DNA of 64,000 nucleotides from Podarcis vaucheri (Eukaryota). The stretch is taken from NCBI GenBank assembly GCA_965113315.1, contig OZ220363.1; one strand, written 5' to 3'. This document shows, piece by piece, positions 46,682-62,762 of the stretch; position 1 is the stretch's first letter; the number at the start of each line of letters is the position of its first letter. The position numbers were made by a program, and so were the translations under genes. A model generated the notes under the pieces. The model did not search any database and was not told the DNA's origin. It was given only the letters and a program-made list of their open reading frames with translations.

Positions 46682-46714
46682 GATTTATGGATGAAGGCAG
46701 TATACAAATTTAAA

Positions 46715-46932
46715 CAAAGCGTGTTCTCACTAAGGGAGAGCACGTGTTGCGGCTGGGGCCAGGCAAAGCACCCTTTAGTTGCCAGGCAGAATTGTTGGAA
46801 GGGGCCTGGCCAGGATTGGTGTTGGCGTTGCTGGGGCAAATAGTATGTTGCCAATTTGGGGGTGGAGATCAGAGGATATTTAAGCAAGGCCCACAGAGAG
46901 TTGCTTTCTCTTTCACTGTGGGCATCGGATCA
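46715..46932 (+). repeat. Split direct repeat A1 (218 bp); copies A2 53301-53518 and A3 54116-54333
   Basis: CAAAGCGTGTTCTC...GGCATCGGATCA occurs three times, identical by eye. Confidence 0.97.
46877..46883 (+). promoter_or_regulatory. TATA-like box in repeat A (putative element promoter)
   Basis: TATTTAA ~30 bp upstream of a pyrimidine-rich Inr-like TTTCACT, close to the 3' end of A. Confidence 0.45.
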
Positions 46933-47099
46933 GCTCGGATCGAACCATAGCGAAGGACTGGTTGTATACAACTTATTCCATTCCCAATCTCCTCTCCTTT
47001 TAATTTTATTTAATTTACCTATTTCTTTGCCTCTGGTAATTTGCCATATTCCTCTTCATATTTTCTCTTCTTTCTGAGTTTTCTTGGGCTTCTTAATTT

Positions 47100-47950
47100 C
47101 AGTTAGACCCCTGACGCAGCTCCCCCGGGGGCTTCGGGCCCTGCGGGCCGCTGGGGGTGGCCGGGTTAGGCACCAGACCCTAGGCTTACGGTCCGGTACA
47201 CGGCTGAAGCAGGCGAAGGGGGTCGGTCCTTTGGGACCCGGCTATTGCCGGCTGGCACTCTTGGCCTGAAGCAGCAGGCCCGGGGGGATCGCAAGGCCAG
47301 GGGTCTGTAGTTAATAGCTTAGGCTCATTTAATCTCGCCCCCTTCCCCCCTTTTCCCTCCCCCCTTTTTCTTTACCCGTATTGGATCGGGCACTTACCGG
47401 GTCGTCGGTGGCCTCCTTTCTCGTGCGCTCCGACGCGCCTGGCTCGGCCGAGTCAGGCCGAGTGGGTGGAGGCGCCGCGCAGGCGCCTGGGTGAGCGGCC
47501 GATTCGCGCTTCGCGCTCTCGGCGGCTAGGCCCGCGAGGCCTTTAGGCGCCCGAGGCCTCGTTCGAGAGGCTGAGCGGTGCTTTCCTCCCCCCCCGGGTT
47601 GTTGTGGGGCGGCGGGGGAGCCGGCGACAGGCCGCGGGGCGGCTTCCCGGCCTAAAGAAGGGCCTCCGCGTTCCCTCCCCCCACGCTCACGCGGGTGGCG
47701 GTGTTGGCGCGCTCCTACCGGGCCGCTTCGGGTGGTGGGGCTGCGTAGGCGCCGCTGCTCGGTTCGGCCTCCTCGGCCCATAATCGGCCTAATTTAGGCC
47801 TTTGGGAGGGGGCCTGCTGACCAAGGGCGGTGAGGGCCGCCATTTTGGTGTTTTGGCGCGAGCGCCAATTTTTCTTTAGCCTTTCTGCATTAGTGTGCTG
47901 GCCTCTAGTGGCCATTGATAGCAAGTGCAGCCTATAATTGGCCTAGGCTG
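47100..47950. promoter_or_regulatory. CpG-island-like GC-rich 5' leader of the Ngaro element
   Basis: Very high GC and CpG density against a CpG-depleted background; YY1-like GCCGCCATTTT near 47837. Confidence 0.7.
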
Positions 47951-48102
47951 CCGGTGTGCCACCTGCTGGTGAGCGGTATAATTACACCTGCCTGGAATTA
48001 ATTGGTTTACTTTGCAGTTTTAAGCTATTTCTTGGTCAGAGTAAGTTTTATTCCTAAAATTACTTGCATTCATTGTTAATTTGTATACCGTTGGCAGCAG
48101 GT

Positions 48103-49734
48103 ATGGCTCCAAAGAATAGGGCGGCAAAGAGGCCTGGGCCGGAGCCCTCAGCAAAGCAGCCCATGAAAGCAAAGAGGCCTATAAAGGGCCCGTCCCAGGC
48201 TTTGCGGTCACCTCGGCCGGATCAGTCGATGAGCCGCATCCAGGCCATGATCACTGGTCTGGCTGGTGACCCTCCTGCACTGGCCCGATTGGAGGCTGAA
48301 ATGAATGGCCTGTTACATCGTTGTTCTACTCCATCAACTTCTACTGCAGGGCTGGCCCCTCCTGCTGGCATTGCCTCTTCGGCGTCCTCTTCTAGTGAAG
48401 ATGAGGGAGGGATTGTAGCAGCTGGAGATTCCTCTCCTGGCGCCTTGGCCCAGGCCCCGGACTTACCAGCAGGACCGGCGCCTGCACGAAGGGGTCAGGG
48501 GGGTGCCAGGGGTACGGCCAATAGAAGGGCGTCAGCTAGGATCAGAGCAGCACAGGCGCCGGGCGTCCCGTCTCCTGCGGCTGCACGATTGGTCCCTGGT
48601 CATTCACAGATTCTGTCTTTTCAGTCTCTTCCTGGTGCAATTCAGCAAAGAAGAGGAGCTTCAAGAGGCGGGCCAAGCGGAGTCGGAGGGTCACTTCATC
48701 ATCTGCCTCAGTCAGTTCCAGGCGTCGTGATGCAAGGTGACGCATCCGAGTCCTCTGTGGAGGACAGCCTTCCACCACCTCCAAAGTCGTCTTCGGGTGG
48801 GCTCCGTCGCCGAAAAAAGAGTTCTAGGAGGCACGCCAAGAAGAGACGGAGGGACACTTCATCCTCTTCCGCAGGTACTTCGTCCCAAACATCCAGTAGT
48901 GACGAGGAAGCCTCACTCAAGCTATACTGGGGCTTTGCAGAGACCTCTGGTCTCCCAAAATGGGCTTGGGAGCGGAGGGCAAACTCTCATAGGGCTAGGT
49001 ATGGGGCGGTGCAGGACTGCCTGGAGGGGGTCCTCATGCCTGACGTGAAGGTCTCTACCAATTCGGCTAGGGACATTATTCCCGGTGCCCACTTGCATAC
49101 AAAACTGCGGTCCAGGATTCTGGATGGCCGTTACATTGATATATTTAGTTTGGCACCCCCTCAGGAGTGCCAGGACTCGCAGGATAGGGGTGTGGCAGCC
49201 ACAAAAAAGAGGGTGGTCTTGCCAAAGGTGGAAAGGACCTTCGAGCGATGGTTGGATAGTTTCCAGGTGTTCGCTGGAGTGGTGGCTGCGGCTTACCCAC
49301 AGAGATCCATGCACTTATGGGTTTATTTGTCCATAGTCCGCTCAGCGTTTACGATGGCGGGAGCGTCTGCTGCAATTTCTTATGATGAGAATTTCAGACG
49401 CAGGGCTGCCAAGATCCCCACTGCCCGCTGGGATCGTAAGGATTTAGATGTCTGGACTACTTATGTAGCCCCACGCATCGATAATAAGGTCCCTGAATTG
49501 CAGAAACCTAAGAATGTGCCAGCTAAAATTGGTCGTAAGTTCTTTTGTTGGGACTTTAACAAGGGTACCTGTCAGCGCCAGTTCTGCAGATATTCCCATA
49601 GTTGTGAGAAGTGTGCAGGGAACCACCCGGCATCTTCTTGTGCGGGGGTGCGACGGCCCTTTCGAAAAGGAGGGGGCTCTCAGCAGCCCCCAAAGGCCGC
49701 CCCCCAGGCTACAGTCTCCGGAGCAGGAAAATAG
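48103..49734 (+). CDS. gag: Ngaro ORF1 Gag-like protein (first ATG 48103; 543 aa)
   Basis: Low-complexity basic/Ser-rich N-terminus with an NLS-like RRRKK...KKRRR. Conserved-looking core (I..G.YIDIF.L, W...F.VF, YDE.FRR) and C-terminal CWDFNKGTC...C.Y.H.C..C...H....C zinc finger. Confidence 0.9.
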   Translation: MAPKNRAAKRPGPEPSAKQPMKAKRPIKGPSQALRSPRPDQSMSRIQAMITGLAGDPPALARLEAEMNGLLHRCSTPSTSTAGLAPPAGIASSASSSSEDEGGIVAAGDSSPGALAQAPDLPAGPAPARRGQGGARGTANRRASARIRAAQAPGVPSPAAARLVPGHSQILSFQSLPGAIQQRRGASRGGPSGVGGSLHHLPQSVPGVVMQGDASESSVEDSLPPPPKSSSGGLRRRKKSSRRHAKKRRRDTSSSSAGTSSQTSSSDEEASLKLYWGFAETSGLPKWAWERRANSHRARYGAVQDCLEGVLMPDVKVSTNSARDIIPGAHLHTKLRSRILDGRYIDIFSLAPPQECQDSQDRGVAATKKRVVLPKVERTFERWLDSFQVFAGVVAAAYPQRSMHLWVYLSIVRSAFTMAGASAAISYDENFRRRAAKIPTARWDRKDLDVWTTYVAPRIDNKVPELQKPKNVPAKIGRKFFCWDFNKGTCQRQFCRYSHSCEKCAGNHPASSCAGVRRPFRKGGGSQQPPKAAPQATVSGAGK

Positions 49735-51340
49735 TGTTCTTTCCTCTTTAGCTTATACCCCAGTTAAGTTACAGCCATTGTTGTCATGGTTACAATTATA
49801 CCCTCTTCAGGAAGCAGCGTCTTATTTGCGTGATGGTTTCTCTCTGGGCTTTCGAATCCCAGTGGCGTCAACTCCAGTAGCTAGGAACCCTTCAAACCAG
49901 AAGTCGGTGAGGGAAATGCCTGAAGTCGCGCGTAGGAAGATTGGGAAAGAACTGGCTTTACGACGTATGGCCGGCCCCTTTGCTGAGCCCCCCTTTCCCA
50001 ATCTTCATATTTCACCCTTAGGTATAGTTCCTAAAAAAGCTCCAGGGGAATTTCGCCTGATTCACAACCTTTCTCACCCTAGGGGCACATCAGTAAATGA
50101 TGTTATTCCCCCGGAGCTTTGTTCTGTGAAGTATGCTTCGCTTGATCAAGCGATCAAAATGATAAGGAAATTTGGGCAGGGTGCCCTGCTGGCCAAATGT
50201 GACATTGAGTCTGCATTTCGGTTGCTTCCAATTCATCCAGACGACTTCTGGCTGCTGGGATTTCAGTTTGATGGGGAATTTTATTTTGACAAGGCCATGC
50301 CCATGGGCTGCTCAGTAGCCTGTGCCGCCTTTGAGTGTTTTAGTTCCTTTCTGGACTGGGCCCTACGCAAAAGAACTGGTTTGGGCGGGGTCACTCATTA
50401 TCTCGATGATTATTTATTGGCCTCAGCTAGTGATACGGGAGACTGTGTGGTGTTGCTGCAGGCCTTCGCGGCCTTAACTGAGGAACTGGGCGTACCGTTA
50501 GCCGCTGAGAAGACTGAAGGTCCTTCTACGCAGCTGACTTATCTGGGTATTCTGTTGGATACGGTGGCGCAAACTTCTAGTTTGCCGGCAGATAAGATTC
50601 TCGCGCTGAGAGGTGTTATTTCTGACCTCATTCCCTTAAAAAAGGTTACTCTGCGACAACTGCAGTCGTTGCTGGGCCACCTAAATTTTGCTTGCAGGGT
50701 GATTGCTCCGGGGCGGCCTTTCTGTTCCCGTCTGGCCAGACTTATGTCTGGTTTGCGGTCCCCGAGGCATAGAGTGCGCTTGTCAGCCCAAGTGCGTGCT
50801 GATCTTCGTATTTGGTTGGAATTCCTGGAGGAATTCAACGGCGTGTCGCTTTGGCAGGACACCCTGAACCTGTGTAATGATTTTCAGGTGCACTCTGATG
50901 CTGCAGGGTCACTGGGCTTCGGTTTGTATTGGGATGGCAGGTGGTGTGCCGAACGTTGGCCTCTGGCTTGGCGTGGGGAAGCTATAACTCGGGACTTAAC
51001 TTTTCTTGAGTTTTTCCCTATTGTAGTGGCTGTCCATTTGTGGGTCGAGCATTTCAGGGACCGGCGCGTATGTTTTTGGACAGATAACCTGGCGGTGGTG
51101 AACGTGCTGGCCAAGCAGTCTTCACGATCACCTAGGGTATCAGCACTGCTGAGGGTTTTCGTTTTGCATTGCTTGCGCCTTAATATTGTATTTTCCGCTC
51201 GTTTTGTGCCTGGAGTATCTAACGAGATTGCTGATGCTCTGTCCCGTTTTCAGATGGAGCGATTCAGGTCCCTGGCGCCAGTGGCTCGAGACCGTCCGGA
51301 ATTTTTCCCGGATCATCTCTGGAACCTTGGCAGCACTTAG
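49514..51340 (+). CDS. pol: Ngaro reverse transcriptase / RNase H
   Basis: SPLGIVPKK, FRLIHNLS, KCDIESAFRLLP, MPMG, HYLDD; RNase H residues SDA, LEFFP, TDN, ADALSR. Overlaps gag by 221 nt. Confidence 0.96.
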   Translation: MCQLKLVVSSFVGTLTRVPVSASSADIPIVVRSVQGTTRHLLVRGCDGPFEKEGALSSPQRPPPRLQSPEQENSVLSSLAYTPVKLQPLLSWLQLYPLQEAASYLRDGFSLGFRIPVASTPVARNPSNQKSVREMPEVARRKIGKELALRRMAGPFAEPPFPNLHISPLGIVPKKAPGEFRLIHNLSHPRGTSVNDVIPPELCSVKYASLDQAIKMIRKFGQGALLAKCDIESAFRLLPIHPDDFWLLGFQFDGEFYFDKAMPMGCSVACAAFECFSSFLDWALRKRTGLGGVTHYLDDYLLASASDTGDCVVLLQAFAALTEELGVPLAAEKTEGPSTQLTYLGILLDTVAQTSSLPADKILALRGVISDLIPLKKVTLRQLQSLLGHLNFACRVIAPGRPFCSRLARLMSGLRSPRHRVRLSAQVRADLRIWLEFLEEFNGVSLWQDTLNLCNDFQVHSDAAGSLGFGLYWDGRWCAERWPLAWRGEAITRDLTFLEFFPIVVAVHLWVEHFRDRRVCFWTDNLAVVNVLAKQSSRSPRVSALLRVFVLHCLRLNIVFSARFVPGVSNEIADALSRFQMERFRSLAPVARDRPEFFPDHLWNLGST

Positions 51341-52227
51341 TTTTACAGGGAGTAGCTGCATCTATTGCCCCCTCCACATTGCGGTCCTATAAGAAGGCTT
51401 GGACCGATTTTTTGCATTTTACTGGGCGGTCAGTGGGAGGGGAAGTGCACACACCTCATTCTACCACACAAGTGCTCAAATATTTGGCGCATCTATTTCA
51501 GATGCGGCGGGCAGCTAGGACTCTGAGGTTGCATTCAGCTGCAATTTCCTTCTTTAGCAAGGTCTATTTTAATAATGATCCTTGTGGGAAGTTCGTTGTG
51601 CGCAAGGCTTTGGAGGGTTGGGGGCGTCTCAGCCCGTCCAGACCAGCTACAAGGAGGCCTATAACGTTTGGTTTGTTGACCGAGATGCAAGGTAAATTGA
51701 AGGGCATCTGTTGGTCCAGGTTTGAGGCTCGGTTGTTTTCCGCAGCCTATTCGCTAGCCTTTTTTGGGGCCCTGAGAGTTGGGGAGGTGGTGTTTGAACC
51801 TAAACAGGATGGTGGTTCCAGAGGCTTGTTGCTGCAGGACGTGAGCCTGTCTCAGTCGGAACTGCAGGTCCATGTCAGGAGTTCCAAAACTGATCAACTG
51901 GGTAGGGGAGCGGTTATTCGGCTCCCAGCAACTGGGATGGGGGGCCCTTGCCCAGTTAAGGATCTCCAGAAATATATGGCTTTGCGACCTCCCGGAAGTG
52001 GGCCCCTGTTCATTCATGAAGATGGGCGGCCATTGGCGCGCCATCAGTTCGCCGGTGTCTTGCGCAAAGTCGTGGCTGCCTGTGGCCATGCAGCCTCTGA
52101 ATTTGCTCCTCATTCCTTCAGGATTGGGGCTGCAACGACAGCTGCCCATTGGGGCTTGTCGGTTAAAAGGATAAAAGACCTGGGCCGTTGGAAGTCGGGC
52201 GCATACAGGGGTTATGTGCGGAAATAA
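51235..52227 (+). CDS. Ngaro tyrosine recombinase (frame open from 51235; no ATG before the conserved N-terminal region)
   Basis: Catalytic set R (GALRVGE), K (SSKTDQ), HxxR (HSFRIG), W (GRWKS), Y (YRGYVR); N-terminal APSTLRSYKKAW. Confidence 0.95.
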   Translation, partial: CSVPFSDGAIQVPGASGSRPSGIFPGSSLEPWQHLVLQGVAASIAPSTLRSYKKAWTDFLHFTGRSVGGEVHTPHSTTQVLKYLAHLFQMRRAARTLRLHSAAISFFSKVYFNNDPCGKFVVRKALEGWGRLSPSRPATRRPITFGLLTEMQGKLKGICWSRFEARLFSAAYSLAFFGALRVGEVVFEPKQDGGSRGLLLQDVSLSQSELQVHVRSSKTDQLGRGAVIRLPATGMGGPCPVKDLQKYMALRPPGSGPLFIHEDGRPLARHQFAGVLRKVVAACGHAASEFAPHSFRIGAATTAAHWGLSVKRIKDLGRWKSGAYRGYVRK

Positions 52228-52841
52228 TGTTGATTTCATGTACTCACATCTGTTGTTTTACCCTAGGTCTCCCCACTATCAGGGTCTGGATAGTGGGGCA
52301 CAGTATTGTGCATTGGGCGGCTTGCAGAGCTCGGCAATCCGAATTGGGAGCTGGCCTTGGCTTTCCTCAGCACGTACAAGTGTCCTGGATCTCCAGAAGG
52401 GGGATGCTGTGGAAGGAATTCTTACCACTCATGCAGAGACGGGTTCTGCTGGAGGGCCCCCCAACAGCGATTGTGGTGCAGCTTGGGGAAAATGATATGG
52501 TTTCCTCTTCTTGTTATGTTTTACGTGCTATTATTTTGCAGGATTTGAGGGACTTGGCGGCCTTGGTACCCGCTACTAAGATAATTTGGTCCCAGTTGCT
52601 TCAGCGTTGCATCTGGAGGGGTAGTCCCTGCCCTGTGGCCACCGAAAGGGTGCGAAAGCGTATCAATTCAGCTGCGAGCAAACTGGTGTTTGATATGGGT
52701 GGGCTTGTGATTCCCCACCCAGATATTAATGTTAAAGCCACTGATTGCTACAGGTTGGATGGGGTTCATCTTACCTCAGTTGGGAATGATGTATGGTTGA
52801 GGTCAGTGGTGGCTATGTTGAGGGTGTGTTTAAGCTTGTGA
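52227..52841 (+). CDS. SGNH/GDSL-family hydrolase (esterase-like) accessory ORF
   Basis: Block I VWIVGHSIV, block II RRG, block III QLGENDM, block V DGVHL. The ATG at 52227 overlaps the recombinase stop (TAATG). Confidence 0.88.
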   Translation: MLISCTHICCFTLGLPTIRVWIVGHSIVHWAACRARQSELGAGLGFPQHVQVSWISRRGMLWKEFLPLMQRRVLLEGPPTAIVVQLGENDMVSSSCYVLRAIILQDLRDLAALVPATKIIWSQLLQRCIWRGSPCPVATERVRKRINSAASKLVFDMGGLVIPHPDINVKATDCYRLDGVHLTSVGNDVWLRSVVAMLRVCLSL

Positions 52842-52870
52842 GTGGTTGGCGGCGAGCGTAAGGGCTCGGG

Positions 52871-53300
52871 TGGCGGTTAGGCATTGGTTTAAATTGGTTG
52901 GTGGAGGGGTATGGATTGGCTGTGCCTGCCCCTCAGGTGATGCTGCTGCACGGGAATTCCGTTAAAGGAATTCAGGGGCTTACCATCCTTTCGTCCAAAC
53001 CCCTGGAATCGGGTTTGGGCCGCGTAAGCCCCTAGGAGCATGTGGGGAGAAGCTGAGGGTCTGTGTCGCAGCTCCAGTTATCCCCGAACTTGTTCCTCCA
53101 CACTGGCTTCCGCTGGAATCCGGAAGTCAGTACTGTCCCCATGGCGGGGGGACAGATAGTCTTAACCAATGCCTAAGCAACCACTCACAATTATGTATGA
53201 TAATAAAGTTGTGGCCAAAATTATGCCAAAAACCTTAAACAAAAATTATGTGTGAAGTGTGAGTTATTGGGGTAGGGGTGTTTTGGGGGACCTCAGCACG
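52871..53300 (+). repeat. Split direct repeat B1 (430 bp); copies B2 53686-54115 and B3 54501-54930
   Basis: TGGCGGTTAGGCATTGG...CCTCAGCACG three times. B3 differs by C>T at 54751. Confidence 0.97.
53202..53207 (+). terminator. Polyadenylation signal AATAAA in repeat B (also 54017 and 54832)
   Basis: AATAAA followed by a GT-rich downstream element (TGTGTGAAGTGTGAGTT). Confidence 0.6.
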
Positions 53301-53518
53301 CAAAGCGTGTTCTCACTAAGGGAGAGCACGTGTTGCGGCTGGGGCCAGGCAAAGCACCCTTTAGTTGCCAGGCAGAATTGTTGGAAGGGGCCTGGCCAGG
53401 ATTGGTGTTGGCGTTGCTGGGGCAAATAGTATGTTGCCAATTTGGGGGTGGAGATCAGAGGATATTTAAGCAAGGCCCACAGAGAGTTGCTTTCTCTTTC
53501 ACTGTGGGCATCGGATCA

Positions 53519-53685
53519 CCCGCCCGCCCTCCCTTGTTTGGGCTTTCGCTTTGACCTTGCTATTGCCTGTCATGGGGTCGTTCGCCTTGGTGCGGGGGCC
53601 CGGTAGGAATTTTGCCATTTGGCTGATTAGTGTGTGCCACTTGGTTTTTGCCTACCGCGTAGCAAATCGTCACAACTTGTAAGGT
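53519..53685 (+). repeat. Spacer C1 (167 bp) between A and B; copy C2 54334-54500
   Basis: Identical by eye; not present at the 5' end of the element. Confidence 0.95.
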
Positions 53686-54930
53686 TGGCGGTTAGGCATT
53701 GGTTTAAATTGGTTGGTGGAGGGGTATGGATTGGCTGTGCCTGCCCCTCAGGTGATGCTGCTGCACGGGAATTCCGTTAAAGGAATTCAGGGGCTTACCA
53801 TCCTTTCGTCCAAACCCCTGGAATCGGGTTTGGGCCGCGTAAGCCCCTAGGAGCATGTGGGGAGAAGCTGAGGGTCTGTGTCGCAGCTCCAGTTATCCCC
53901 GAACTTGTTCCTCCACACTGGCTTCCGCTGGAATCCGGAAGTCAGTACTGTCCCCATGGCGGGGGGACAGATAGTCTTAACCAATGCCTAAGCAACCACT
54001 CACAATTATGTATGATAATAAAGTTGTGGCCAAAATTATGCCAAAAACCTTAAACAAAAATTATGTGTGAAGTGTGAGTTATTGGGGTAGGGGTGTTTTG
54101 GGGGACCTCAGCACGCAAAGCGTGTTCTCACTAAGGGAGAGCACGTGTTGCGGCTGGGGCCAGGCAAAGCACCCTTTAGTTGCCAGGCAGAATTGTTGGA
54201 AGGGGCCTGGCCAGGATTGGTGTTGGCGTTGCTGGGGCAAATAGTATGTTGCCAATTTGGGGGTGGAGATCAGAGGATATTTAAGCAAGGCCCACAGAGA
54301 GTTGCTTTCTCTTTCACTGTGGGCATCGGATCACCCGCCCGCCCTCCCTTGTTTGGGCTTTCGCTTTGACCTTGCTATTGCCTGTCATGGGGTCGTTCGC
54401 CTTGGTGCGGGGGCCCGGTAGGAATTTTGCCATTTGGCTGATTAGTGTGTGCCACTTGGTTTTTGCCTACCGCGTAGCAAATCGTCACAACTTGTAAGGT
54501 TGGCGGTTAGGCATTGGTTTAAATTGGTTGGTGGAGGGGTATGGATTGGCTGTGCCTGCCCCTCAGGTGATGCTGCTGCACGGGAATTCCGTTAAAGGAA
54601 TTCAGGGGCTTACCATCCTTTCGTCCAAACCCCTGGAATCGGGTTTGGGCCGCGTAAGCCCCTAGGAGCATGTGGGGAGAAGCTGAGGGTCTGTGTCGCA
54701 GCTCCAGTTATCCCCGAACTTGTTCCTCCACACTGGCTTCCGCTGGAATCTGGAAGTCAGTACTGTCCCCATGGCGGGGGGACAGATAGTCTTAACCAAT
54801 GCCTAAGCAACCACTCACAATTATGTATGATAATAAAGTTGTGGCCAAAATTATGCCAAAAACCTTAAACAAAAATTATGTGTGAAGTGTGAGTTATTGG
54901 GGTAGGGGTGTTTTGGGGGACCTCAGCACG

Positions 54931-54955
54931 CAAACAAACAAACAAACAAACAAAC
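54931..54955. repeat. (CAAA)n microsatellite, the Ngaro target site
   Basis: Directly abuts B3; the left junction reads TTTAAA-CAAA-GCG. Confidence 0.9.
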
Positions 54956-56963
54956 TTTGAACTGGGCCCAGAAACTAATCAGCTTCCAATGCAGTCAGGC
55001 CAGGATCAGTGTAATAAGCTCAAACTATCTTGCCCCAATGAGCACCCTGGTTGCCAAATTCTGCACCAGCTGAAGTTTCCAACCATCTTTAGAGGCACCC
55101 TCGCGTATAAAATAGTGCAATAATATAACCTGGAGATTACCAGAGCATGGCTGACAAAAGTTAGGTTATCCCTGCCTTTTCTGTACTGAGCTTCAGTTTA
55201 TTGGTTCTCATCCAGTAAACCTGTGGATTTGTTAGTTTCCTCAGTCCAGGAAGTGGCAAGTTAGGGCTTCTGCAGTAGTATGGATTTTGTAGGATGGCTA
55301 ACTTTTGGTTCACGTATTGCTTCAGAAAGTACAAATTAGGTAATTAGTCTTTAAATGCAAACTGAAGCACATCTCTCCCCCATCCCTACTCTTTAGGTTC
55401 AAAGATTTGAGGCAATGTGTGCAGACAGTATTCTCTCTTATTGCTTGGTGAGAAATTCATTTAAACCTTCTTCCATTGTTTGTAGCCCATGAGGGAAGCC
55501 ACAGCAAGGATGGATATCACACAGCTAGTTAACCTAGCTTCTTATTTTATTTATTTGCTTTTCTGTTTTATATTATCATCAATGCATAGTATGTTATGGT
55601 TAACCTATCATAACAACATCGAAAAAGCCCTGTTGGATAAAAAGTGAATTTCCAAAGTGCACGCGTCCATTTCCTCCACATTGCCATGCTGAACCAGTCA
55701 AGGATGAAGTGAGACCACACAATGCATTTGGTGGAGATGCAGGATGTAACCATTGTTTATCAAGATTATTTGAGGGAACAAGAAAAAAGAGGTTGACGGC
55801 TGTTAATTCATGGGTCACAGAACAAAGATAGTGCTGGTATATCCCTAGTTCAATTTATGTTGTCCAATATATGGAAGCAGAAACTTTCCCAACCAAATAG
55901 ATATTTTATATGATCCTGAAGCATGGCACCTAAAATTAGAACTCCTGTGACTGATAGTTCCAGTATGACAGTCTCTTCATAGATCTGCCCCCCACCCCCA
56001 AATAATATTGATGAGTTTTGTGTTTTGCTTGTGGGTTTTAATTTCCTTGGCTGGTTGGTTATGGAGGGCAGGGGGCATTTTTTTCACAGGAACTATTCAA
56101 GCCTTCTGGGCTGCTGGTGTCTGATGCTAGTATCCGCTATATAGAGACCTCCCATTTTCAAAAGAAATCCACAGAGATTCCTGAACTTGAGCACTGCTAT
56201 CAAAAAGAACAGTCCTTCCTGCAGGTTTTCATTTCAAAATAGTTGCTTACAGCCTTAATTTAAACTTGAGTAACAAATGTGAGGTTCCTTCCCCCATCCC
56301 AAGAGACACATAGTTCACATAAGTGAAAAAGTAGAAAATTCATCTCTCTCTCATTCCACCCCCACCCCCTCTGCAGCCAGCCACTGCTGGTGCTTCAATA
56401 GTGATAAAGGGAGGGGGGCTGTCATGAGATGGATTGAGGGAGGCTTTGGGACTGAATGATCCAGTGTCTACCCATTCCCATAAAACACTCCCACAAGGGA
56501 GGCAGAATATGTCGGGATTCATGCCTGCCTTCAGGAGAAACTGGCCACTCTCCAGGCACCCGGCTTGAATCACCGGTTGACCTCCCTGTCTACATTCCCG
56601 GCAAGATCCAGGCAAGGTCGCGATCGGCGATCCTCCCCAGCGTGAAGAGGACACACCACTCTTTTCTGCCCCTAGGCAGGGGAAAGAGATAGACAGAAAC
56701 GTATTTACATGTCTTTATTTCTGTCTTTGCAGCATTACAGAGAAACACGTCTGCTCTCTTCAGACTCCAACAGCAGAGAGACACAAACTCCACCTACTGT
56801 ACATCCTGCACAGCTCATATTACACTGTGAGCTAATTCTGGTGCTTCGCACTGTGAAAAGACTGCCCCTTTGTTTCCCACGGAACAGTACCCAACATTCT
56901 TATTATGTTTTGCTTCCAAGCTAGCAGCTGGCAGCCGCATTGCTTCTTTTCCGTAACAGAATA

Positions 56964-57194
56964 CAGTGGTGCCTCGCAAGACGAAATTAATTCGTTCCGC
57001 GAGTTTTGCCGTCTAGCGAATTTTTCGTCTTGCGAAGCACGGTTTTAACGGTTTAACAAAGTCGCGAAAAGTTTTCGTCTTGCGAAGCAAGCCCATAGGG
57101 GAATTCGTCTTGCGATGCAAATCGAAAACGAAAAAACCTTTCGTCTAGCGAGTTTTTTTGTCTTGCGAGGCATTCGTCTTGCGAGGTACCACTG
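56964..57194. mobile_element. Tc1/mariner-type MITE, family 1
   Basis: TA-CAGTGGTGCCTCGCAAGACGAA...TTCGTCTTGCGAGGTACCACTG-TA. Confidence 0.9.
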
Positions 57195-57211
57195 TATACC
57201 AAAGGCTTGTA

Positions 57212-57437
57212 CAATGGTACCTCAGGTTACATACACTCCAGGTTACAGACTCCGCTAACCCAGAAATAGTACCTCGGGTTAAAAACTTTGCTTCAGGATG
57301 AGAACAGAAATCATGTTCCGGCAGCGCGGTGGCAGCAGGAGGCCCCATTAGCTAAAGTAGTGCTTCAGGTTATGAACAGTCTCAGATTAAGAACAGACCT
57401 CCGGAACGAATTAAGGACTTAACCCGAGGTACCACTG
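57212..57437. mobile_element. Tc1/mariner-type MITE, family 2 (reverse orientation)
   Basis: TA-CAATGGTACCTC...GAGGTACCACTG-TA. Confidence 0.88.
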
Positions 57438-57669
57438 TATACTTATTCACCACCTCCTATCCTGTGCAACCCAGCAGGCTATAGGAAGTGGTGGTACCTG
57501 CACTCAGCTCTGCCCAATGCCCACCTTAGAATTGCTTTGTCAGAGAGCTGAAGCAGTTATTGAGAATATGCAGAAGTTAAAGCCCACAGTTGTCTTTGAG
57601 GGGTTTTGCAGGGCAGGCACAGTTTAAATTTTACAACTTTCTGCTTTCCTCTTTTAGTTGACGTCTAAG

Positions 57670-61772: not shown

Positions 61773-62138
61773 GGGACGCGGGTGGCGCTGTGGGTAAAAC
61801 CTCAGTGCCTAGGACTTGCCGATCGCATGGTCAGCGGTTCGAATCCCCGCGGTGGAGTGAGCTCCTGTCTTTCGGTCCCAGCTCCTGCCCACCTAGCAGT
61901 TCGAAAGCACCCCTAAGTGCAAGTAGATAAATAGGTACTGCTTTATAGTGGGAAGGTAAACGGCGTTTCCGTGTGCTGCGCTGGTGCTGGCTCGCCAGAG
62001 CAGCTTTGTCACGCTGGCCACGTAACCCAGAAGTGTCTCCGGACAGCGCTGGCTCCCGGCCTTTTAAGTGAGATGAGCACACAACCTTAGAGTCGGACAC
62101 GACTGGCCCGTACGGGCAGGGGTACCTTTACCTTTACC
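61773..62138 (+). mobile_element. Sauria SINE (full length)
   Basis: Head GGGACGCGGGTGGCGCTGTGG, B-box GGTTCGAATCC, (ACCTTT)n tail, TSD TATGTTAARTATA. Confidence 0.92.
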
Positions 62139-62222
62139 TATGTTAAATATATGAACATTTAGAGCACCTGTGTGAGCCTCATTGAATCCGGTGGGAATTA
62201 CTCCCAAGTAGGTAAAGTTACA

Positions 62223-62762
62223 GGGCGCGGGTGGCGCTGTGATCTAAACCACTGAGCCTAGGGCAGGGGTCAGCAAACTTCCCGCGCCTCAGGCCGGTGT
62301 CTCCAGTGCCGATCGTGTGGCGGGCCAGAGGGCGGGGGAGCGCATGCCCATACACGTATGCACAGGCTATTTCACGCGCACTTCCGAATTGGAGGAGCAC
62401 CAGAATAGCTTGTGTGCATGTGCACGGGCCTCCTCTGACCTGCATGTGTGGGTCTCATCTCGCTTTCAGGCCGAGGGAGCCGGTGTTTGTCCACAGACAG
62501 CTTTCCAGGTCATGTGGCCAGCATGACTAAACCGCTTCTGGCACCACAGAACAGCATGACAGAAACCAGAGTGCACGGAAACACCATTTACCTTCCTGCC
62601 ACAGCAGTACCTATTTATCAACTTGCATTGGCATGCTTTCGAACTGCTAGGTTGGCAGGAGCTGGGACACAGCAATGGGAACTCACTACTCCGTTGCGGG
62701 GATTTGAACCACTGACCTTCTGATCGGCAAGCCCAAGAGGCTCAGTGGTTTAGACCACAGCA
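62223..62762. mobile_element. Composite: Sauria SINE head (+, 62223-62262), hAT-like terminus and GC-rich insert, then Sauria SINE on the minus strand (~62450-62762)
   Basis: The SINE head stops at CCTAGGG, followed by CAGGGGTCAGCAAACTT (hAT MITE-type end); a reverse-complement SINE body follows. Confidence 0.7.

Follow-up and report, generated by a model that had tools for sequence, protein, structure and literature searches.

Ngaro-like retrotransposons (order DIRS), which encode a tyrosine recombinase (YR), are defined by split direct repeats of the order A1 ... B1 A2 B2 (accessible part of PMC9210276). The Ngaro-like elements DIRS-53_XT and DIRS-54_XT of Xenopus (PMC9210276) and Bou1 of the newt (PMC13003380) have overlapping reading frames, and splicing of the element goes unmentioned in the accessible sections of both papers. 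Poulter and Butler (2015), as quoted in the accessible text of PMC13003380, held that YR is probably produced through programmed frameshifting. The expression of an ATG-less YR frame and of an orphan SGNH frame is an open point for YR retrotransposons, with frameshifting as the stated guess. Here we analyse a 64,000-nt stretch of Podarcis vaucheri DNA (contig OZ220363.1, assembly GCA_965113315.1; hereafter the window), in which positions 46715-54934 of the plus strand are, judged by open reading frame (ORF) content and repeats, a complete Ngaro-type retrotransposon with Gag, reverse transcriptase (RT)/RNase H (RH), YR, SGNH and split direct repeats.

We propose, with a probability of roughly 0.8, that a single donor within gag (48874|48875) serves two downstream acceptors. 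The Gag N-terminal exon, 48103-48874, would be joined from its ATG at 48103 either to the YR acceptor (51254), giving Gag-N/YR, or to the SGNH acceptor (52267), giving Gag-N/SGNH; unspliced RNA would be read through the donor into full-length Gag, with Pol probably reached through recoding at the stop codon of Gag. The shared exon may thereby supply a start codon together with a basic nuclear-targeting or RNA-binding tag, and an intron in the 5' leader, upstream of the Gag ATG, is also predicted. The Gag-N/SGNH fusion by splicing is highly probable; the Gag-N/YR fusion is likely, in the window copy on the strength of protein models; and the route to Pol is put forward tentatively. The features on which this proposal turns are as follows.

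48103-49734, plus strand: Gag ORF, 543 aa, predicted to be translated across the donor from unspliced RNA; close to the C-terminus, a weak match to a CCCH zinc finger; full-length relatives P0021-P0025.
48103-48874, plus strand: predicted shared coding exon, the N-terminal 257 aa of Gag, ending in a basic tract and a Ser run, in phase 1.
48875-48880, plus strand: predicted splice donor; the window copy has GTACTT, 33 copies have GTACGT and 8 have GTATGT.
51230-51253, plus strand: predicted 3' splice signals of YR (GCTGAT as branch point, then a pyrimidine tract and the AG), within the Pol codons ADALSRFQ.
51254-52227, plus strand: predicted YR exon, phase 1, junction codon Asp; Pfam Phage_integrase and Phage_int_SAM_4; RefSeq models are joined at the same Asp.
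52241-52266, plus strand: non-coding spacer with the predicted 3' splice signals of SGNH (TACTCAC as branch point, then a T-rich tract and the AG).
52267-52841, plus strand: predicted SGNH esterase exon, with GHS, GxND and DGxH motifs, a weak Pfam Lipase_GDSL match and a contig joint.

Conservation was assessed in 39 loci retrieved with the Gag region and 40 of a more distant family retrieved by SGNH similarity. Nine loci were excluded before counting (L045, which is truncated, and eight without gag), so that the final set comprises 70 loci plus the window, or 71 copies, 65-92% identical to the window; these share descent, and the counts are not independent events. The GT at 48875 is present in 71/71 copies and ranks first of the 77 conserved GT sites. 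The Gly codon at this point is invariably GGT, a constancy that most other conserved Gly codons lack. In 65 of the 71 copies an open frame runs from the Gag ATG to the donor and finishes in phase 1, the exon being 772 nt long in the window compared with 664-670 nt (about 220 aa) in most copies. The first-pass annotation of this DNA had read 48875 as a Gag acceptor closing a 138-nt intron whose removal would take out a basic tract resembling a nuclear localisation signal. The AG before 48875 is lost in 32/32 distant copies, so the site cannot be an acceptor; since it is instead a donor, with the frame open from the Gag ATG, the basic tract stays in the shared exon, and it is also retained in the fusion models. 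A phase-1, pyrimidine-rich AG in gag before 48722 (window 48700-48722) occurs in 64/71 copies and may be a minor acceptor or an effect of codon usage.

The SGNH acceptor AG, before 52267, and its branch-like motif are each found in 71/71 copies. The branch-like motif is short and common in T-rich sequence, so that the AG and the tract weigh more. The spacer from the YR stop to this AG varies from 29 to 56 nt and falls in the three frames 24, 25 and 22 times, that is, with no frame preference. Among 20 proteins longer than the SGNH ORF, 16 consist of the Gag N-terminus, matching the shared exon, joined to SGNH at the 48874/52267 junction, and one has another N-terminus. In a 1030-aa Zootoca model, P0019, a long non-Gag N-terminus precedes the SGNH exon, perhaps through splicing of a host gene into the acceptor of the element.

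At the YR exon the acceptor AG, before 51254, is likewise present in 71/71 copies. The seven Pol codons upstream of it are without synonymous change, a state found in 19 of the 342 codons taken as background. Upstream of its AG the YR frame closes after 6 or 10 codons and has an ATG in 0/71 copies; its first ATG lies only at 51502, which agrees with the earlier remark that no ATG precedes the conserved N-terminus. Of 184 YR relatives found, 120 were listed, and the 34 of at least 325 aa were examined. Two Podarcis muralis models, P0049 and P0291, join the Gag N-terminus to YR at the predicted Asp, and eight further models have an N-terminal extension joined at the same Asp. A phase-0, pyrimidine-rich AG within YR, before 51472 (window 51446-51479), is seen in 66/71 copies and is absent from the window copy; it could be a minor acceptor or a codon effect.

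YR might instead arise by a -1 ribosomal frameshift from Pol within their overlap, SGNH alone being spliced. YR does overlap the end of Pol in the -1 frame, the invariance around 51233-51253 could mark a recoding signal, and a YR junction is missing both from the raw reads, which are thin, and from the contig joints listed. However, no canonical slippery heptamer X XXY YYZ occurs in the Pol/YR overlap in any of the 71 copies, the invariant block reads as a branch point followed by a pyrimidine tract and an AG, and both RefSeq models and isoform pairs put the join at the predicted Asp. We consider frameshifting into YR improbable and retain the splice from the gag donor.

Pairs of annotated isoforms in other lizards bear on both fusions. 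In Zootoca LOC118082278, isoform X1 consists of 206 residues followed by YR and isoform X2 of the identical 206 residues followed by SGNH. The Anolis sagrei isoforms XP_067323425-27 have a common N-terminus with either YR or SGNH, and in Hemicordylus a pair of N-termini that are 97% identical precede YR and SGNH at two loci. These three families were compared as proteins, and the identity of the shared exon as the start of gag comes from the window family only. Isoform labels usually require transcript support. A query with the Gag N-terminus for longer proteins returned five Gag proteins only and missed the known YR fusions, and is therefore insensitive. In molluscs, the models P0169, P0086 and P0112 have long N-terminal extensions before SGNH or YR, and the plan may extend beyond vertebrates.

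Contigs were examined from four runs that are probably RNA and are presumed here to be so. One contig of run X2 (depth 4.87), from a related family, joins 48876 to 52285 with 16 letters between, exactly the length given by a 48874->52267 splice. These letters match the post-acceptor sequence of seven copies at 13/16 positions and the start of the intron at no more than 6/16. Joints at 48736 or 49752 are absent among the contig joints listed. Two further contig joints, 48136-48707 and 48200-48708, were rejected as introns; their ends are not GT/AG, they flank a divergent region, and we attribute them to divergence. In runs X1-X3 contig depth is higher over 48680-48899 and SGNH than over Pol, a measure that cannot rank parts of a gene and was not used. 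Raw reads of four RNA runs from 2026 gave 70-105 placements per run, mostly in terminal repeats, with no joints and with the ORFs barely covered, too thin for a test. Genomic copies lacking the intron were sought with two junction patterns, which had no match, compared with 163 exact genomic copies of the unspliced YR motif.

Several observations weigh against this proposal. The RNA junction is a single contig, from one run of presumed RNA, from a related family and possibly from an organism other than that of the window, and the Gag-YR joint (51254) is not among the contig joints listed. The RefSeq models are automatic, and their supporting reads are not visible. Of the 34 YR models examined, three have pieces of RT fused to YR and at least three continue across the acceptor, and an N-terminus clearly homologous to the window Gag is found only in P0049 and P0291; of the 20 SGNH models, three are YR joined to SGNH. 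The donor of the window copy scores as only moderate on a rough matrix. If these points are pressed, the sites would be conserved for coding or replication signals and the junctions would be annotation artefacts or rare cryptic events, automatic transposon models being error-prone and the junction being seen in one contig only. Yet the SGNH acceptor lies in a non-coding spacer of variable length and nevertheless keeps AG, tract and branch motif in 71/71 copies, there is no conserved ATG from which YR or SGNH could otherwise start, and the pattern of a shared N-terminus recurs in distant lizards. Such an artefact seems to us very improbable. For splicing from gag to YR and SGNH, the sequence features of U2-type alternative 3' splicing are present: a conserved GT donor, branch point, pyrimidine tract, AG and a maintained frame.

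The idea of a shared phase-1 exon feeding alternative acceptors came from the first-pass annotation, which placed the start codon in a small exon and extended the scheme to Gag and Pol.

48625-48736, plus strand: the 'start exon' of that annotation; Gag coding sequence within the shared exon, in a region longer in the window copy than in most; the AG before 48625 is present in 44/71 copies.

The sequence elements it named do exist. An AG precedes each of 48875, 49752, 51254 and 52267, in phase 1 of its own frame, and the 112-nt segment, whose one ATG is at 48730, stops in phase 1 directly ahead of GTGACG. Ordered by their number of pyrimidines, the four sites come 1st, 2nd, 4th and 9th among the YAG sites in 47000-52900, and their agreement in phase would have a chance of about 1 in 27 had the sites been preset; they were picked post hoc, and so a single sequence cannot decide. 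Across the 71 copies, 51254 and 52267 are conserved acceptors and 48875 is conserved as a donor, whereas 49752 and the donor at 48737 are not conserved. The shared-exon principle thus stands for YR and SGNH, falls for the Gag acceptor and for the identity of the exon, and is unsupported for the Pol acceptor. A small exon spliced to all four acceptors (Gag core, Pol, YR and SGNH) would account for the common phase in the window copy, and its YR and SGNH acceptors are real. Its donor GT, however, is kept in 10/71 copies, an in-frame ATG at that codon or the next (48-49 codons before 48875) is found in 5/71, its Gag acceptor AG is the one missing from every distant copy, its Pol AG is variable, and both the contig and the models have 48874 as the donor side. 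It also omitted the ATG of Gag itself at 48103, the first ATG after 46900. We regard the small-exon scheme as largely refuted and barely credible; it could persist only as minor cryptic splicing in the window copy. The phase-0 AG before 51349, named as an alternative for YR, exists and is invariant (71/71); it was set aside as an acceptor and counts as a minor candidate, since further AGs surround it and neither a conserved phase-0 donor nor a model to match it was found.

Expression of Pol appears to follow another course, for which two features are relevant.

49726-49753, plus strand: candidate site of recoding into the +1 (Pol) frame, namely the Gag stop, which follows a Lys codon and lies 19 nt ahead of a Pol Ala codon.
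49735-51340, plus strand: Pol, comprising RT and an RNase H-like C-terminal part; Pfam RVT_1, E 6e-14; frame open from 49469 in the window copy.

In 70/71 copies the last Gag codon is Lys, followed by TAG, TGA or TAA (Lys-stop), and the Pol Ala codon comes exactly 19 nt later. In the spacer the +1 (Pol) frame has no stop in 43/43 distinct sequences, the third frame being likewise stop-free, and in the Pol frame the Leu four codons upstream is written with five different codons, a synonymous change. Downstream, the Pol frame in most copies meets its first ATG only after another 39-72 codons. Coding in the Pol frame thus seems, from these patterns of substitution, to begin at the Gag stop. Our favoured route is a +1 shift at this stop, to which we give a little less than even odds; against it, the Lys codon is AAG (AAG-stop) in 24/70 copies, a poor fit to simple +1 re-pairing. 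AUG-independent reinitiation, which is known from LINE-1, ranks after it and is rather doubtful. Lower still we place splicing of Pol from the 48874 donor to an acceptor that varies by family. The TTAG at 49750, the Pol acceptor of the earlier scheme, is in phase 1 with a good pyrimidine tract in the window, and the AG is present in 42/71 copies. The other 29 have lost it, though, and no conserved site replaces it where the Pol frame is open; nor is any usable acceptor conserved from the donor to RT. Those AGs that are conserved between 48876 and 49950 fail, in most copies, to lead into the open Pol frame. The Pol-frame codons from the Gag stop to the AG moreover change synonymously and so look translated, and no Gag-N/Pol model occurs among 302 proteins, a weak negative, as the searches were not aimed at Pol. 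Spliced Pol is accordingly an improbable alternative to recoding at the Gag stop. The codon directly ahead of the Pol Ala codon is an in-frame ATG in L075, L076, L077, L080 and L101, and TTA, TTG or CTG in other copies. A G-run in the Gag/Pol overlap (window 49665-49675) is an indel hotspot, and length changes at 49668 place Gag and Pol in one frame in 5/71 copies; this fusion was rejected as a mechanism, being found only where the run is at least 7 long, a run that is not conserved, and it points to slippage or assembly error.

Two features concern the 5' leader.

48075-48100, plus strand: predicted acceptor of a leader intron, a T-rich tract with two tandem AGs ahead of the Gag ATG.
46960-46967, plus strand: GGTYGTAY motif directly after A1, in 62/71 copies; palindromic in the window copy (46960-46971); possible weak leader donor or replication signal.

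The leader AGs are found before 48098 in 70/71 copies and before 48101 in 71/71, with a mean pyrimidine content of 0.68. A T-rich tract with a tandem AG in nearly all copies leads us to predict an intron here; a search of the copies for its donor gave no convincing conserved strong site.

The assignment of the element rests on its ORFs and on its repeats.

46715-46932, plus strand: A1 split direct repeat at the 5' end of the element, 100% identical to 53301-53518 and 54116-54333.
52868-54934, plus strand: 3' repeat array B1, A2, spacer, B2, A3, spacer, B3, with one additional 815-nt unit and an AAAC microsatellite after it.
52868-53304, plus strand: B1 repeat, carrying AATAAA at 53202.

The copies of repeats A and B are 99.5-100% identical. 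We find YR in place of a DDE integrase, repeats of the A1 ... B1 A2 B2 order, no methyltransferase and an SGNH ORF after YR, as in Ngaro-like elements. Both Pfam matches on YR score slightly below their curated cut-offs, and many YR relatives are annotated 'xerD homolog'. The three SGNH motifs and an open frame are present in 66/71 copies, and the SGNH part shares 96-99% identity with models from Podarcis muralis; a PDB sequence search with SGNH gave no match at E up to 1. None of the four ORFs has a Pfam match to a DDE integrase, and no methyltransferase domain follows RT/RH, RVT_1 being the sole Pfam match in Pol at E up to 0.1 and Pol ending at 51340. A DIRS1-like or PAT-like identity is ruled out by the presence of direct repeats only around the element and the lack of a methyltransferase match, where inverted terminal repeats with an internal complementary region (in DIRS1-like elements) or a methyltransferase (in both groups) would be expected. 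A complex retrovirus, with long terminal repeats (LTRs), DDE integrase and env, is ruled out by the split direct repeats and YR, with no such Pfam matches on the four ORFs.

The additional 3' unit (B-A-spacer) within 52868-54934 is 99.8% identical, and an extra unit is also seen in L069. AAAC repeats adjoin both ends of the element (46705-46718 and 54930-54955), with no obvious target-site duplication, which suggests insertion into an AAAC microsatellite. Downstream, at 56958-57443 and 61774-62761, lie short elements with inverted or direct repeats, probably remnants of other transposons. Eight of the 40 loci retrieved by SGNH similarity (L072, L073, L078, L081, L093, L104, L107 and L109) lack gag and RT and contain an A repeat, a tandem-repeat block and, from a distant Ngaro family, a decayed RH-YR(-SGNH) fragment; in their young 3' end the SGNH frame is still open and the acceptor of YR or of SGNH is preserved. 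They are apparently non-autonomous chimeras, and an origin as copies of spliced RNA was rejected, their breakpoints not being at the acceptors.

The donor and its two acceptors would define the protein products, about 545 aa for Gag-N/YR and 413 aa for Gag-N/SGNH in the Podarcis models, which are needed for the biochemistry of either enzyme. They would also explain a class of 'uncharacterized' lizard RefSeq genes as transposon isoforms, and splicing is indicated as a point of control by the host. The Gag stop is a testable recoding candidate in a vertebrate. A doubtful extension is that in the Ngaro elements of squamates, and perhaps of vertebrates in general, one Gag-N module underlies three proteins (full Gag, Gag-N/YR and Gag-N/SGNH) as a common tag for nuclear targeting or particle assembly, and that these elements gain access to Pol through a +1 shift at the Lys-stop.

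Spliceosomal introns were reportedly mentioned in some elements by Goodwin and Poulter in 2004, and a prior mention is possible. Our literature search, whose coverage did not include Goodwin and Poulter (2004) or Poulter and Butler (2015), returned no report of splicing from a gag donor to YR or SGNH. Nor did it find a combination of splicing and stop-codon recoding described for any retrotransposon.

The comparison with complex retroviruses made in the first-pass annotation holds for the mode of splicing and does not extend to LTRs, DDE integrase or env. Complex retroviruses produce spliced env messages from one donor and downstream acceptors. As in the spliced env of retroviruses and the spliced ORF3 of LTR elements (for ORF3, accessible part of PMC5408684), one donor would serve downstream acceptors and a spliced RNA would express a 3' accessory ORF; according to the same part of that paper, SGNH esterases occur among the ORF3s of rotifers. 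Unlike those messages, the window element would splice its integration enzyme itself, and the leader would be a coding exon of about 220-257 aa. The element resembles the Ty1/copia element EVADE of Arabidopsis, with its shGAG (accessible part of PMC8892269), in that splicing from a site in gag would set protein ratios from one transcription unit; in EVADE, as described there, splicing yields extra Gag alone, whereas here half of Gag would be grafted onto two enzymes.

With DIRS-53_XT, DIRS-54_XT and Bou1, as far as the accessible descriptions go, the element shares overlapping Gag-like, RT/RH, YR and SGNH ORFs and split repeats A1 ... B1 A2 B2; it differs from them, as there described, in its conserved YR and SGNH acceptors, predicted to be fed by the gag donor, and in its extra 3' unit. 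The predicted Gag-N/SGNH protein matches the layout of ZfL2-1 ORF1p (accessible part of PMC3905857), in which an N-terminal region and an arginine-rich motif are followed by an SGNH esterase. ORF1 of ZfL2-1 is contiguous in that account, whereas Gag-N/SGNH would be assembled by splicing, and the likeness noted here is one of layout. The SGNH product would thus converge on the ORF1p layout of esterase-bearing long interspersed nuclear elements (LINEs).

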